Shown: positions 51 to 4,596 of the stretch, piece after piece | Layout: each line of letters begins with the position of its first letter | How positions within the stretch are numbered: the first letter of the stretch is position 1 | Origin: a virus | Lineage: Duplodnaviria; Heunggongvirae; Uroviricota; Caudoviricetes | Virus record (IMG/VR): IMGVR_UViG_2534681705_000011 | DNA: 4,609 nucleotides | Direction: 5' to 3' (one strand) | Translations under genes and position numbers: made by a program | The notes under the pieces: generated by a model | Database searches by the model: none | The model's input: the letters and a program-made list of their open reading frames with translations, nothing else | Told to the model about the DNA's origin: nothing

Positions 51-72
51 GGCGAGGGAGAAATCCCTCGCC
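51..72 (+). other. RNA stem-loop in the 3' region of the hok-like gene (9-bp perfect stem, GAAA tetraloop)
   Basis: GGCGAGGGA (51-59) pairs perfectly with TCCCTCGCC (64-72) around a GAAA loop (60-63). No U-tract follows, so it is a structural element rather than a terminator. Confidence 0.45.
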
Positions 73-111
73 ACCTCTGATGTGTCAGGCATCCTCAACG
101 CACCCGCACTT

Positions 112-138
112 AACCCGCTTCGGCGGGTTTTGTTTTTT
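112..138 (+). terminator. Rho-independent terminator ending the upstream hok-containing transcript
   Basis: Stem AACCCGC (112-118), loop TTCG, stem GCGGGTT (123-129), then the T-rich run TTTGTTTTTT through about 138. Confidence 0.7.
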
Positions 139-484: not shown

Positions 485-1534
485 GTGCGGGTATTACTTC
501 GACCTGTTCTGGTGCCGGAACTTGGGGTGGTTATCGTTAAGCCTGGTCGTGAATCCATGCAGGTATTCCATAACGGCAGAGTGCTGGTTGAACCGGAGCC
601 AAAAAGCATGCGCGGTCTGCCGTCCGGGGTCGTTCCTGCCGTTCGCCAGCCGCTGGCGGAAGACAAATCTCTGCTGCCATTTTTCAGCGATGAGCGGGTG
701 ATTCGTGCTGCCGGCGGCGCTGGTGCACTGTCTGACTGGCTCCTGCGTCATGTTAAATCCTGCCAGTGGCCTCATGGTGACTACCATCACAGTGAAACCG
801 TCATACATCGTTACGGTACCGGCGCGATGGTGCTGTGCTGGCACTGCGACAACCAGCTGCGTGACCAGACATCCGAATCACTCGGGCAACTTGCTCATCA
901 AAACCTGTCAGCATGGATGATTGACGTCATACGCCATGCAGTGAATGGCACGCAGGAGCGGGAATTATCGCTGGCTGAATTATCCTGGTGGGCGGTCCGC
1001 AATCAGGTGGCGGACGCGCTTCCGGAGGCAGTATTACGTCGTTCTCTGGGGTTACGTGCGGAAAAAATCCGCTCTGTGTACCGTGAAAGCGACATCATAC
1101 CGGGAGAGCAGACAGCCACCAGCATACTGAAGCAGCGCACAAAAAATATTGTGCTACCGCCTCACGCCCACCAGCAACAGAACCCACCACAGGAAAAGAC
1201 GGTGGTCAGCATTGCCGTAGATCCGGAGTCTCCGGAATCTTTCATGAAACGACCTAAACGTCGCCGTTGGATAAATGAGAAATACACACGCTGGGTAAAG
1301 ACACAGCCGTGTGCATGTTGTGGTAAGCCAGCCGACGATCCCCATCACCTGATTGGTCACGGTCAGGGAGGGATAGGAACAAAAGCCCACGATATTTTCA
1401 CGCTACCGCTGTGTCGGGAGCATCACAACGAGCTTCATGCGGATCCGCTGGCGTTTGAAGAAAAATATGGTTCCCAGATTGATTTAATTTTTCGTTTTCT
1501 TGATCACGCCTTTGCAACCGGCGTGCTCGGGTAA
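485..1534 (+). CDS. ydfU: DUF968-family protein (YdfU-like) with C-terminal HNH-like Cys/His motif; putative structure-specific nuclease in the NinG position
   Basis: 349-aa ORF with GTG start at 485 preceded by GGAGG (475-479). The C-terminus carries CACCGK...DDPHHL...CREHHNELH, a CxxC...HH...C-x2-HH-N-x2-H pattern. Its length and position directly upstream of rusA/Q match YdfU of the Qin prophage as I recall it. Confidence 0.8.
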   Translation: MRVLLRPVLVPELGVVIVKPGRESMQVFHNGRVLVEPEPKSMRGLPSGVVPAVRQPLAEDKSLLPFFSDERVIRAAGGAGALSDWLLRHVKSCQWPHGDYHHSETVIHRYGTGAMVLCWHCDNQLRDQTSESLGQLAHQNLSAWMIDVIRHAVNGTQERELSLAELSWWAVRNQVADALPEAVLRRSLGLRAEKIRSVYRESDIIPGEQTATSILKQRTKNIVLPPHAHQQQNPPQEKTVVSIAVDPESPESFMKRPKRRRWINEKYTRWVKTQPCACCGKPADDPHHLIGHGQGGIGTKAHDIFTLPLCREHHNELHADPLAFEEKYGSQIDLIFRFLDHAFATGVLG

Positions 1535-1546
1535 AAGAGGTTACTG

Positions 1547-1918
1547 ATGCGTATAGAGTTTGTTTTGCCTTACCCGCCGACGGTGAACACCTACTGGCGA
1601 CGCCGTGGCAGCACATATTTTATCTCAGAGGAGGGAAAGCGTTATCGCCGGGATGTGGCGCTCATTGTTCGCCAGCAGCGACTGAAATTAAATCTGTCCG
1701 GAAGGCTGGCGATCAGGATTATTGTGGAGCCACCGGATAAGCGCCGTCGTGACCTGGACAATATCCTGAAAGCGCCACTGGATGCACTGACACATGCGGG
1801 ACTGCTTATCGACGACGAGCAGTTTGATGAAATTAATATTGTGCGCAGTCAGCTTGTACCTGGTGGTCGGCTGGGCGTGAAGATTTACGAAATTACAGGT
1901 GGTAACGATGGCACGTGA
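1547..1918 (+). CDS. rusA: Crossover junction endodeoxyribonuclease RusA (Holliday junction resolvase)
   Basis: 123 aa with ATG at 1547 preceded by AAGAGG (1535-1540). The RRRDLDN and LIDDEQ motifs (catalytic acidic residues) and GGRL are clearly RusA-like. It lies in the canonical position upstream of Q. Confidence 0.93.
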
Positions 1919-2273
1919 TATTCAGATGGTTCTTGAGCGTTGGGGAGCGTGGGTGGCAAATAATCATGAGGATGTCACATGGCCATCGATTGCTGCTGGC
2001 TTTAAAGGATTAATACCGTCGAAAGTTAAATCGCGTCCGCAATGTTCCGACGATGACGCAATGATCATTTGTGGCTGTATGGCCCGGTTGAATAAGAACA
2101 ACAAAGAATTACACGATTTGCTGGTAGATTATTACGTGGCGGGCATGACGTTTATGGCGCTAGCACGAAAGCATGGTCGTTCGGATTGCTGGGTTGGCCG
2201 TTTGTTGCAAAAGGCTGAAGGGATAGTTGACGGCATGTTGATGATGCTTGATATCAAGCTGGACATGGACTGA
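1908..2273 (+). CDS. quuD: Late-gene antitermination protein Q (short QuuD / phage-82-like family)
   Basis: ATG at 1908 preceded by AGGTGG (1897-1902), overlapping the rusA stop (TGA 1916-1918). The 121-aa product matches the short Q family by length and position, and the sequence ([23 protein letters not shown]..., [16 protein letters not shown]) agrees with QuuD as I recall it. The ORF track's GTG at 1899 is an alternative start. Confidence 0.85.
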
Positions 2274-2317: not shown

Positions 2318-2797
2318 TTAAATGTTTTTATAATAACTCGCTTTTTCGTTAAAATTATTTTTGTTTTCTCTGGATGGAGAACTTACGTAGTTTTCCCATG
2401 CGCTATACGTTTTGATTAATGCTTCTCGCTCTGTAGGTGATTTTGTGTTTGCCTTGAGTTTTTCAAATGGTTCTTTTGCTGCATTTAAAACGATCATCAT
2501 TTGCTCGATGTCGCAGTCAGCGATTGCTTTTGATATATCGGGATCCCAGCCAACTCTCACTAACATATCTTGCTTGCTGGAAGTAATAAATTGTGTAGTG
2601 TTGATTATCATTTCTCCCTTATATAGAAGCTTTAAAAAATTATTTTTGTTAACTTGCTGGGGCGTGTTGTCCAAGGTGATATTTTCGCATTTCTTTAAAT
2701 ACGCATAATGATCACTATTTCTGTTTTCTGCGGAAGATTGAGCCGTACACCCTGTAATGATCAATGTACTTAATAATGTCAATGCTATTTTTTTCAT
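2318..2797 (-). CDS. Lipoprotein of unknown function, encoded by an AT-rich insertion (moron)
   Basis: 159 aa. The N-terminus MKKIALTLLSTLIITGC is a signal peptide with a lipobox (ITGC), and the residue after Cys is Thr, not Asp. The gene and its upstream region are visibly AT-rich (2341-2400 is about one-third G+C by hand count) against GC-richer flanks. It converges on Q. Confidence 0.8.
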   Translation of the reverse strand: MKKIALTLLSTLIITGCTAQSSAENRNSDHYAYLKKCENITLDNTPQQVNKNNFLKLLYKGEMIINTTQFITSSKQDMLVRVGWDPDISKAIADCDIEQMMIVLNAAKEPFEKLKANTKSPTEREALIKTYSAWENYVSSPSRENKNNFNEKASYYKNI

Positions 2798-2873: not shown

Positions 2874-2901
2874 TTTACAATCGTAAAAAATCAAATATGC
2901 T
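2874..2901 (+). promoter_or_regulatory. Candidate sigma-70 promoter, possible late (PR'-like) promoter relocated downstream of the insertion
   Basis: TTTACA (2874-2879), 16-nt spacer, TATGCT (2896-2901). The hairpin plus T-run at 2933-2955 lies about 30-50 nt downstream of the predicted start, the promoter-then-terminator arrangement used by Q antiterminators. By eye only. Confidence 0.3.
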
Positions 2902-2932: not shown

Positions 2933-2955
2933 AACCCGCCGCCAGGCGGTTTTTT
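2933..2955 (+). terminator. Intrinsic terminator-like hairpin with T6 run (candidate tR'-like terminator)
   Basis: CCGCC (2936-2940) pairs with GGCGG (2945-2949) around a GCCA loop; flanking A:T pairs are possible; TTTTTT follows at 2950-2955. No + strand gene ends just upstream. Confidence 0.5.
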
Positions 2956-3078
2956 GTGTCCGAAAAACGGCGCAGTACGTTAAACGTGCTGGTGGTTGCG
3001 AATACCGGTCTTTCAGCTTGCTGGCTTTTTCGACAAGAGTTATTGGTATGTCACGTTAACCAGAAAAGGGAAAAAGAC

Positions 3079-3273
3079 ATGCTAAAACAGCAGGATATGA
3101 CCGAAACTGCCAGAGTGGTATTTAATGAATTAAGCGTCACCGAACCGGCGACCGTCGGGGAGATTGCGCAGAATACTTACCTTTCACGCGAACGCTGCCA
3201 GTTAATACTGACCCAGCTTGTTATGGCGGGTCTGGCAGATTATCAGTTCGGTTGTTACAGACGTCTTCCGTAG
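3079..3273 (+). CDS. Small winged-helix DNA-binding protein (PapI/FaeA-like)
   Basis: 64 aa from ATG at 3079, preceded by AAGGG (3066-3070). The segment VVFNELSVTEPATVGEIAQNTYLSRERCQLILTQLVMAGLA follows the PapI/FaeA winged-helix pattern (T-x-E-I-A ... S-x-x-x-x-R ... L-x-x-x-G). The longer ORF-track version (GTG at 2956) has an implausible N-terminal extension crossing the terminator. Confidence 0.6.
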   Translation: MLKQQDMTETARVVFNELSVTEPATVGEIAQNTYLSRERCQLILTQLVMAGLADYQFGCYRRLP

Positions 3274-3426
3274 TGAAGGCTTTTTAATTTGTGGTAATGG
3301 GCGGCTGGTGGGTGTTAGCGGCACCTGCCAGCCATCTGCTCATGCGTTGTGGTCACAAGCAAACCTCAGGCCCATCTGCTTTGCGCAAAAGCGGTATGAG
3401 CCTATCAGAGAAGTGCTTATTGATCT

Positions 3427-4038
3427 ATGGCTAATACTGTAAAAATATCCAGTTGTGAGTTAATCAACGCTGATTGCCTGGAATTTATCCAGACCTTACC
3501 GGAAAATTCTGTCGATCTGATAGTCACAGACCCGCCATACTTTAAAGTGAAGCCCGAGGGCTGGGATAACCAGTGGAAGGGCGACGATGATTACCTGAAA
3601 TGGCTGGACCGGTGTCTGGCGCAGTTCTGGCGGGTACTGAAGCCCGCAGGAAGTCTTTACCTGTTCTGTGGTCATCGCCTGGCATCTGATATCGAAATCA
3701 TGATGCGTGAACGCTTTAATGTGCTGAACCACATTATCTGGGCGAAGCCGTCCGGACGCTGGAACGGATGCAATAAGGAAAGCCTGCGGGCGTATTTCCC
3801 GGCAACAGAACGCATTCTGTTTGCAGAACATTATCAGGGGCCATACCAGCCCAAAAATGACGGCTATGCGGCAAAGGGGTGCGAGCTAAAACAGCACGTC
3901 ATGGCCCCGCTGATTTCTTACTTTCGTGATGCGCGTGAATCACTGGGAATAACGTCAAAACAGATAGCGGAAGCCACCGGAAAGAAAAACATGGCTTCTG
4001 GTTTGGACCAGTCAGTGGCAATTACCGAACGAGGGTGA
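3427..4038 (+). CDS. N6-adenine DNA methyltransferase (beta class), N-terminal part carrying motif IV DPPY; reading frame interrupted
   Basis: DPPY at residues 35-38 (nt 3529-3540) within DLIVTDPPYF, followed by an HTH-like segment LGITSKQIAEATG. The frame ends at TGA 4036-4038 while the rest of the enzyme continues in the +1 frame. Confidence 0.8.
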   Translation: MANTVKISSCELINADCLEFIQTLPENSVDLIVTDPPYFKVKPEGWDNQWKGDDDYLKWLDRCLAQFWRVLKPAGSLYLFCGHRLASDIEIMMRERFNVLNHIIWAKPSGRWNGCNKESLRAYFPATERILFAEHYQGPYQPKNDGYAAKGCELKQHVMAPLISYFRDARESLGITSKQIAEATGKKNMASGLDQSVAITERG

Positions 4039-4048
4039 TTACAACAAA

Positions 4049-4471
4049 TTGCAGGCGTTGTTTGCGCGTGTTGCGGCAGAAAAGCATCAGCGAGGGGAAC
4101 TGGAAAAGCCACACCACCAGCTGGTCAGCACATACAGTGAACTGAACCGGCAATATGCCAGCCTGCTGGAAGAGTACAAATCCCTGCGGCGTTATTTTTC
4201 CGTATCGGCTGCCGTTCCGTATACGGATGTCTGGACGCATAAATCCGTGCAGTTTTATCCGGGCAAACATCCCTGTGAAAAACCGGCAGATATGTTGCGG
4301 CAGATAATTGAGGCCAGCAGTCACCCTGGTGATTTGGTTGCGGATTTTTTTATGGGTTCAGGTTCAACGGTAAAAGCGGCGATGGCACTGGGGCGTTGTG
4401 CGATTGGTGTTGAGCTGGAGACCGGACGTTTTGAACAGACAGTCAGGGAAGTTCAGGATTTAATCGTTTGA
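4049..4471 (+). CDS. N6-adenine DNA methyltransferase, C-terminal part (AdoMet-binding motif I); continuation of the preceding ORF in the +1 frame
   Basis: Contains HPCEKP and DFFMGSGST (FxGxG-type motif I), as in beta-class MTases such as YhdJ (recalled). This frame is open from 3968 (after TAG 3965-3967). The ORF-track start at 4049 is TTG; the first in-frame ATG is far downstream. Confidence 0.75.
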   Translation: MQALFARVAAEKHQRGELEKPHHQLVSTYSELNRQYASLLEEYKSLRRYFSVSAAVPYTDVWTHKSVQFYPGKHPCEKPADMLRQIIEASSHPGDLVADFFMGSGSTVKAAMALGRCAIGVELETGRFEQTVREVQDLIV

Positions 4472-4520: not shown

Positions 4521-4596
4521 GGCCCTTTAGCTCAGTGGTGAGAGCGAGCGACTCATAATCGCCAGGTCGCTGGTTCAAATCCAGCAAGGGCCACCA
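4521..4596 (+). tRNA. ileZ: tRNA-Ile2 (anticodon CAU, lysidine-modified type; ileX/ileZ-like), CCA encoded
   Basis: Cloverleaf built by hand: acceptor GGCCCTT/AAGGGCC, D-arm GCTC...GAGC, anticodon loop CTCATAA (CAT at 4554-4556), T-arm GCTGG-TTCAAAT-CCAGC, discriminator A then CCA. Very close to E. coli ileX as recalled. tRNAscan would probably report it as Met/Ile(CAT). Confidence 0.88.

Follow-up and report, generated by a model that had tools for sequence, protein, structure and literature searches.

The window analysed here, a 4,609-nucleotide (nt) stretch of the IMG/VR virus record IMGVR_UViG_2534681705_000011 (Caudoviricetes), represents 4.6 kb of the nin-to-late junction of a lambdoid prophage of the Shiga toxin (Stx) phage type. 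The best overall explanation of its late end, to which we assign a probability of roughly 60%, is a late-operon module composed of a gene for a 64-residue winged-helix protein, a structured leader RNA and a gene for an adenine methyltransferase (MTase) of the M.EcoGII clade, in which production of the enzyme would be under local control. The identity and architecture of this module, including a functional RNA, we hold to be highly likely, and they are grounded in the observed gene identities, synteny and co-occurrence, and in the structure of the RNA and its distribution (Table 1).

Comparative analysis of the spacer between the small open reading frame (ORF) and the MTase gene revealed a conserved, covariation-supported structured RNA of cis-regulatory type, located on the sense strand and adjoining the MTase start codon. 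The architecture obtained with RNAalifold and manual inspection is a three-way junction, in which P1 closes P2 and P3, followed by the hairpins P4 and P5; in the lineages whose alignments were inspected, the first start codon lies a few nt past the 3' end of P5. Mean pairwise identity of the spacer was 0.84, against 0.52-0.54 at the third codon positions of both flanking ORFs. An unfitted MAFFT alignment, built from 33 sequences with less than 96% identity, had 91% of its cells paired and nine pairs changed on both sides, a level reached by none of 500 shuffles, with 1-6 such pairs in slid controls. A larger alignment of 44 sequences yielded compensatory changes in 28 of 35 pairs and a covariation score of 0.319, compared with 0.103 for shuffles (0/500) and at most 0.073 for slid controls; it was fitted to the model, which inflates its pairing counts, and the margin is large and the unfitted result agrees. 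G-U pairs were frequent (in 29 sequences at one position of P5 and in 10 at one of P2), and since these would be A-C mismatches on the opposite strand, the structure belongs to the sense strand of the mRNA. Furthermore, the P2 and P3 sequences of distant members are entirely different yet still paired, and P1 of the Aeromonas sequences includes two compensatory pairs. None of the 4227 families in Rfam 15 matched the leader at E ≤ 1, either over 3274-3440 or in the distant members, and an Rfam scan of the window returned just the tRNA and sub-threshold chance matches.

Several other readings of the spacer were considered. A coding function was rejected, given 1-nt insertions and deletions and the lack of any frame open in all loci. 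A pairing of AGGUCA (3350-3355) with UGAUCU (3421-3426) that would sequester the start codon was not adopted, its support in alignment A4 being mixed: compensatory in loci L025 and L199, mismatched in several others (L132, L191, L198, L139). The P3 loop did not covary with codons 2-3. An alternative, switch-like pairing of GCUCAU with AUGAGC is compatible with the data, which do not discriminate it.

A covariance model of the leader (R1) gave one match per locus, upstream of the MTase, and with filters off it also recovered the leader 5' of MTase homologs with 51-67% identity. The distant carriers include N15, phiKO2, PY54, YDC107_1, Klebsiella 48ST307, Morganella IME1369_02 and Serratia OS31, as well as Vibrio VHML, MAR, Valp1 and ST2-1pr and Aeromonas phiARM81ld and PCAh2. 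A refined model (R2) did not find the leader in the Proteus-like clade (L022-24), L031, phiO18P, an archaeal-virus MTase locus or ep3, and approximately 20 chance matches from a pattern scan of viral contigs, which occurred without the rest of the element, were discarded. No Shine-Dalgarno sequence was visible upstream of the start codon in the enterobacterial sequences. In N15 (L233), MTase homology starts at 2001 and the leader RNA ends at the ATG there; the start of the MTase (gene 52) given in RefSeq, 2235, appears to be misplaced downstream by approximately 78 codons.

In the Vibrio and Aeromonas phages, the leader RNA and the MTase are separated by an ORF resembling the zinc-ribbon protein Com of phage Mu (PF10122, E = 1.6e-6 in phiARM81ld). 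ORFs with the four cysteines of a Com-like zinc ribbon occur in phiARM81ld, Valp1, ST2-1pr and PCAh2, those of ST2-1pr and PCAh2 being unannotated in their records, and a hairpin follows on the 3' side of each, abutting the MTase start. Upstream in these loci no winged-helix homolog was found with confidence; a weak gp51-like signal was seen in Valp1 and ST2-1pr.

The initial annotation had proposed a beta-class N6-adenine MTase downstream of the spacer, and both the profile matches and the motif order agree. PF01555 matched each of the two ORFs into which the gene is divided (3427-4038, E = 1.4e-17; 4049-4471, E = 1.2e-24), and DPPY (motif IV, 3529-3540) precedes FxGxG (motif I, 4349-4363), the order of the beta class. 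Alignment with phiP27 and E. coli E94 traced the frameshift to the loss of 4 nt after 3995 and of 1 nt after 4004; the first ORF stops at 4038 and the reading frame is not intact. The broken copy in the window is the exception, since 133 of the 136 distinct alleles in the collected loci are intact and 3 are truncated. The two halves share 97% and 92% identity with the phiP27 enzyme, which is 87% identical to the MTase of phage 1720a-02 (relatives, 349-352 residues), and the latter was named "very similar" to M.EcoGII by Murray et al. (PMC5778455). These comparisons place the window MTase in the M.EcoGII clade through an indirect but close link, which passes via phiP27 and 1720a-02 and not through the M.EcoGII sequence itself. 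M.EcoGII is a 349-residue non-specific adenine MTase from a very large family of E. coli prophages; it is silent in the lysogen, its constitutive expression is deleterious or toxic, and the purified enzyme is active without a partner (PMC5778455). The clade is found chiefly in prophages of Enterobacteria (PMC11551740). M.EcoGII is in wide use as a reagent, for example in MadID and in engineered RNA methylation. The literature searched yielded no account of how it is naturally controlled, and text searches of PMC5778455 and PMC11551740 gave no passage on an upstream small ORF or a leader RNA.

The pairing of the small ORF with the MTase is real and ancient, and the co-occurrence check suggested by the initial annotation bears this out. 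In a search with the small protein, the MTase was located 150-160 nt downstream of the small ORF in 18/18 loci of different species, including Escherichia, Salmonella, Kluyvera, Citrobacter, Klebsiella, Buttiauxella, Enterobacter and Phytobacter. In the converse search with the MTase, the small ORF was present in all 74 viral loci with enough sequence upstream. Remote relatives of the small protein (38-49% identity) likewise have a PF01555 MTase (57-70% identity) encoded directly 3' of them; their loci follow an antiterminator from one of three unrelated families (PF06530, PF03589, PF06323) and precede the lysis genes. In N15, phiKO2, PY54 and YDC107_1, the MTase locus has a gp51-family gene just upstream of it; N15 and phiKO2 have an annotated late promoter and terminator between that gene and the leader RNA and MTase. 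A distant relative (P0189) was also observed in L028 (337-1848), where it follows a Dam-type (PF02086) MTase and a 76-residue ORF, and where an insertion sequence element interrupts the region downstream.

The small ORF extends from an ATG at 3079 to a TAG at 3271-3273, and its product is one residue shorter than the usual 65, the TAG replacing the CAG (Gln) that precedes TGA in its relatives. The AlphaFold2 model, based on a 19-sequence alignment, consists of H1, a short strand, H2, H3 and a beta-hairpin wing (predicted local distance difference test score 85.5 on average), from which we are confident in predicting a minimal stand-alone winged helix. The family is tiny, with 334 matches in a set of 5.8 billion proteins and 85 representatives at E ≤ 1e-3 among 1.84 billion, and it corresponds to phrog_331 in PHROGs, where it is listed as function unknown. 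Matches of the window protein in Pfam were limited to generic winged-helix families below threshold (TrmB at 0.0025, MarR_2, DprA_WH), and DprA_WH was the commonest match among 22 diverse family members (16/22, best E 1.3e-8). The initial annotation had described the protein as a PapI/FaeA-like winged helix; the fold is supported by the model, and membership in the PapI/FaeA family failed every sequence test. PF04703 was absent from the 7 Pfam families matched by the window protein at E ≤ 1 and from the 25 families most often matched by the 22 members, and neither PapI nor PefI was returned by profiles A2 and A8 against all PDB chain sequences at E ≤ 10. The gp51 family of N15 was recovered as a remote homolog (hhalign probability 94.5%, E = 8e-8). 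The window protein contains two cysteines and did not match PF10122 (Mu Com), and no specific similarity was found to readers of N6-methyladenine (m6A) of the DpnI type, all fold matches being generic.

Both genes lie on the same strand in the Q-dependent late region, as had been supposed, with Q, a pR'-like promoter and a terminator all upstream. The location of pR' relative to Q and the next terminator agrees with related phages, and a GC hairpin with T-run equivalent to tR' occupies the same spot in related loci. The order of Q, a variable moron, the small ORF, the MTase, tRNAs and stx or lysis genes is common to phiP27, E94 and 1720a-02; in the Stx2e phage phiP27 it reads L23, L24, ileZ, argO, stx2e. 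A 1.8-kb region was matched in 3490 of 5426 complete E. coli genomes and in 296 phage records, mostly of Stx-converting phages. Elsewhere, the moron slot between Q and pR' holds an OmpC porin (E. coli E94), a GIY-YIG nuclease (phiP27) or a DUF2971 protein (L021). The candidate short transcript from pR' to tR' (2902-2955, +) is the positional counterpart of the 6S RNA of lambda, and the sequence of this segment (TAAGAGTGGTTACTT...) is common to L006, L021 and L148. At the opposite end of the window, 52-133 (+) gave a sub-threshold Rfam match to isrK (27.8 bits, gathering score 50); this isrK-like sequence closes with a terminator hairpin and probably represents a nin-region element that carries a terminator.

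Table 1. Features of the 4,609-nt window, with positions of the leader RNA and of Com-like ORFs in other loci.
Feature	Position	Strand	Remarks
DUF968 protein	485-1534		
RusA	1547-1918		
Q antiterminator	1899-2273		PF06530, E 6e-51
Lipoprotein moron, between Q and pR'	2318-2797	-	phrog_8179; weak Exc2-like entry-exclusion match
pR'-like late promoter, 3' of Q	2874-2901	+	TTTACA-16-TATGCT; consensus scan, putative function
tR'-like intrinsic terminator	2936-2955	+	CCGCC-GCCA-GGCGG + T-run; predicted
Conserved promoter-like block, 5' of small ORF	3018-3054	+	TTGCTG-17 nt-TATTGG-TATGTCAC
64-residue winged-helix ORF	3079-3273	+	phrog_331; remote homolog of N15 gp51
Terminator-like hairpin over small-ORF stop, directly 5' of leader RNA	3263-3290	+	GTCTTC-CGTAGT-GAAGGC + T-run
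Spacer between small ORF and MTase	3274-3426		153 nt
Structured leader RNA	3298-3426	+	~135 nt; model match 3284-3440
P1	3298-3302 / 3370-3374		
P2	3303-3314 / 3322-3333		
P3	3337-3344 / 3354-3361		
P4	3376-3382 / 3388-3394		
P5	3396-3401 / 3415-3420		
Tail UGAUCU, P5 to AUG	3421-3426		6 nt; AUG at 3427
MTase (pseudogene)	3427-4471	+	PF01555
tRNA, next late-transcript element	4521-4596	+	anticodon CAT; ileZ/tRNA-Ile as annotated in Stx phages
Leader RNA, L233	1864-2014		
Leader RNA, L235	1810-1961		
Leader RNA, L237	1059-1214		
Leader RNA, L241	906-1061		
Leader RNA, L243	893-1046		
Com-like ORF, L240	1001-1138		
Com-like ORF, L243	~1028-1217		
Com-like ORF, L241	1040-1165		
Com-like ORF, L232	1829-2044		

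The small gene is flanked by conserved elements of its own, and with the block upstream and the hairpin downstream it has the promoter-ORF-terminator look of a moron. The upstream block, with the consensus TTGCTG, 17 nt, TAYNNG, TRTGTCAC across relatives, was found in approximately 80 distinct loci, among them those of the most distant relatives (L022, L025, L028 and L031). It accompanies the small ORF even in relatives of ~40% identity, and it is missing wherever the small ORF is missing. Its spacing is constant and its spacer sequence is free to vary, which makes it more like a DNA site or promoter; an RNA hairpin at this position was rejected, as the spacer varies without compensation at a fixed length. 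By-eye comparisons with the sigma-54, -32, -28 and -E consensus sequences failed, and no C-box-like palindrome pair was recognised in the block when it was read by eye. The hairpin at 3263-3290 is retained in other genera with different sequences, and in most lineages the leader RNA is directly preceded by a hairpin and U-tract, a place taken by tR' or, among lambdoid phages, by the hairpin at the small-ORF stop.

The motifs that the initial annotation flagged in the spacer as possible binding sites for the small protein all lie at the coordinates it gave. The 9-bp direct repeat CCATCTGCT occurs exactly twice in the window, at 3332 and 3372 (0.04 expected; 0/200 shuffles reached two copies), the palindrome TTTGCGCAAA once, at 3380, and GATC at 3422-3425, with 12 copies in the window against 16 expected and thus no enrichment. 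These motifs could belong to a controller unit, in the manner of a C protein, in which the small protein would bind the repeats and palindrome in the DNA of 3274-3426 and set MTase transcription. The tight co-occurrence, the small fold of DNA-binding type and the conservation of the palindrome would all be consistent with this arrangement. However, the motifs map to helices of the conserved sense-strand RNA. Copy 1 of the repeat (3332-3340) runs from the last part of P2 across the junction into the 5' side of P3, and copy 2 (3372-3380) from the 3' side of P1 into the 5' side of P4. The palindrome (3380-3389) forms the apex of P4, a stem with compensatory changes, and GATC falls in the 6-nt tail between P5 and the AUG. 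As a conserved element the direct repeat was rejected, not being kept outside the Escherichia clade, and the single spacer GATC is missing in other lineages. Covariation and G-U pairs indicate RNA and not duplex DNA sites, and the sigma-70 consensus scan and a reading of the sequence revealed no promoter inside the spacer. Moreover, six loci carry the leader and MTase without the small ORF, some clades (L022-24) carry the small protein without the leader, and the promoter and terminator of the N15 type separate the small-protein homolog from the RNA. Neither the window nor the related loci include a restriction endonuclease partner, and the fold is not an Xre-type helix-turn-helix; a controller unit is therefore improbable. 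Spacer conservation could also reflect recent horizontal spread, or a DNA-level function of another kind, such as sites for protein binding or a signal for recombination or packaging. Long invariant blocks, even in helices able to tolerate compensatory change, and one symmetric change that preserves the P4 palindrome (L012) would fit such a function, but the flanking coding DNA of the same loci is saturated at synonymous sites, so spacer conservation does not stem from recent spread. The 28 of 35 covarying pairs, the P2 and P3 helices, whose sequences differ completely in N15, phiKO2, PY54, Vibrio and Aeromonas, and the abundant G-U pairs make a DNA-level origin very improbable.

Other alternatives concern the small protein. 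A PapI/FaeA-type factor acting with the adjacent MTase at an adenine-methylation-sensitive switch (Dam/GATC, Lrp-like), as the initial annotation had suggested, is scarcely credible: besides the failed sequence tests, an MTase in this clade was reported to be non-specific (PMC5778455), and the spacer holds one GATC and no Pap-like pair. The protein might instead have no part in regulating the MTase and handle the consequences of hypermethylation or some other phage need, for example as a binder of modified or unusual DNA or RNA similar to Z-alpha or the DprA winged helix, as a counter to m6A-dependent type IV restriction, or by modulating the MTase through protein contact. This is unlikely but deserves more weight than the switch, and the lack of specific similarity to DpnI-type m6A readers, the generic fold matches and the activity of purified M.EcoGII alone (PMC5778455) count against it. 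A role of the winged-helix protein as regulator we judge to be a tentative assignment, falling somewhat short of even odds, and the looser combination of a regulator and an MTase is possible.

Besides the inflated counts of the fitted alignment, several observations weigh against the module as proposed. The conserved fold leaves the AUG region unpaired, so that simple sequestration of the start codon is not supported. The small protein has a net charge of approximately -1, counted from its sequence, which is unusual for a DNA-binding factor. In two of the six loci with leader and MTase and without the small ORF, tR' lies directly before the leader; conversely, three loci from E. coli prophage contigs (L216 6578-, L135, L180) keep the small ORF without the MTase, with an AraC-family regulator gene in its place and the breakpoint inside the leader, after P2. 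These two sets of loci imply that the small protein is not obligatory in cis. A likely winged-helix relative, on weak evidence, stands alongside Com in Valp1, and this coexistence implies that the winged-helix protein and Com are not simple substitutes. The -10-like hexamer of the upstream block has no canonical final T, which makes the block a candidate promoter only, and non-specific methylation by the lineage of the window MTase is an extrapolation from M.EcoGII.

The most likely mechanism of the late-operon module is as follows. The MTase may hypermethylate replicating phage DNA late in infection, which on the published biochemistry of M.EcoGII would give broad protection from restriction. 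Both tR' and the hairpin at the small-ORF stop could block RNA polymerase that has not been modified by Q, and as the enzyme is toxic, we propose that these two terminators confine the MTase to readthrough by Q-modified polymerase. The leader RNA would then tune translation of the first downstream ORF, and it probably controls the amount of toxic MTase made. The winged-helix protein may act as a trans-acting, nucleic-acid-binding local regulator encoded beside its target, and not as a partner of a PapI-type Dam switch. A more specific proposal, that the leader represents a novel regulatory RNA class serving only phage MTases of the M.EcoGII family, gating translation of the toxic methylase either as a riboswitch (S-adenosylmethionine and S-adenosylhomocysteine being the obvious candidate ligands) or as an operator for the MTase or the winged-helix protein, is speculative, and we would not bet on it as it stands.

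No description of the small protein, the function of N15 gp51, the leader or a small RNA (sRNA) at this site was found in the literature searched, which was incomplete; the anti-sRNAs AgvB and AsxR (Tree et al.) lie downstream of moron genes and not at the leader site. What is new is a candidate RNA family that is absent from Rfam, deeply conserved and tied to a toxic non-specific methylase, along with suggested corrections to the start of N15 gene 52 and to the two phage records with Com-like ORFs. In many Stx1 and Stx2 phages, the module occupies the region between Q/pR' and the toxin genes. The leader and its winged-helix companion thus offer handles on how phages restrain a toxic non-specific methylase, and on the processing or translation of the first segment of the toxin-carrying late transcript. 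If our reading of the leader is true, it could also influence downstream late genes, since in many Stx phages it sits in the same late transcript, directly 5' of the tRNAs and stx.

Among known systems, the leader resembles the cis-regulatory leaders and riboswitches of Rfam in being a multi-helix 5' element with invariant junction nucleotides that is attached to one gene family and abuts the start codon, although it matches none of the catalogued families. In contrast to PapI, PefI and FaeA (PF04703), the small protein shows no sequence-level relationship to that family and no architecture of Lrp sites and GATC pairs, and it belongs to a phage late operon and not a fimbrial one. In placing the gene of a small putative regulator directly 5' of a restriction-modification enzyme gene, possibly with an autoregulated promoter block, the locus recalls the C proteins of restriction-modification systems. 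However, C proteins are Xre-type helix-turn-helix dimers that bind C-boxes and time expression of the restriction endonuclease, whereas the window locus has no such endonuclease and a different fold, and its two genes are separated by a terminator-like hairpin and a structured RNA.

Closer counterparts occur among phages. The uncharacterised N15 gp51, phiKO2 Gp51 and PY54 ORF59 are remote homologs whose genes sit immediately 5' of the same leader RNA and MTase; N15-type phages differ in the late promoter and terminator placed between gp51 and the RNA, which implies that gp51 and the MTase are not co-transcribed from the late promoter. M.EcoGII and M.EcoGI, from E. coli O104:H4 prophages (PMC5778455), are like the window enzyme prophage-borne, beta-class PF01555 proteins of approximately 350 residues; silence in lysogens would be a further point in common. 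The window copy differs in being frameshifted. Mom of the Mu com-mom system, in contrast, is not a methyltransferase, and the small protein of the window is a predicted winged helix rather than a zinc ribbon and is encoded upstream of the RNA rather than between RNA and enzyme. The likeness to com-mom lies in a late transcript that carries a toxic gene for DNA modification behind a gene for a small nucleic-acid-binding protein, with an RNA structure at the start codon, and it extends to the Com-like zinc ribbons encoded between the same leader and the MTase homologs of Vibrio and Aeromonas phages.

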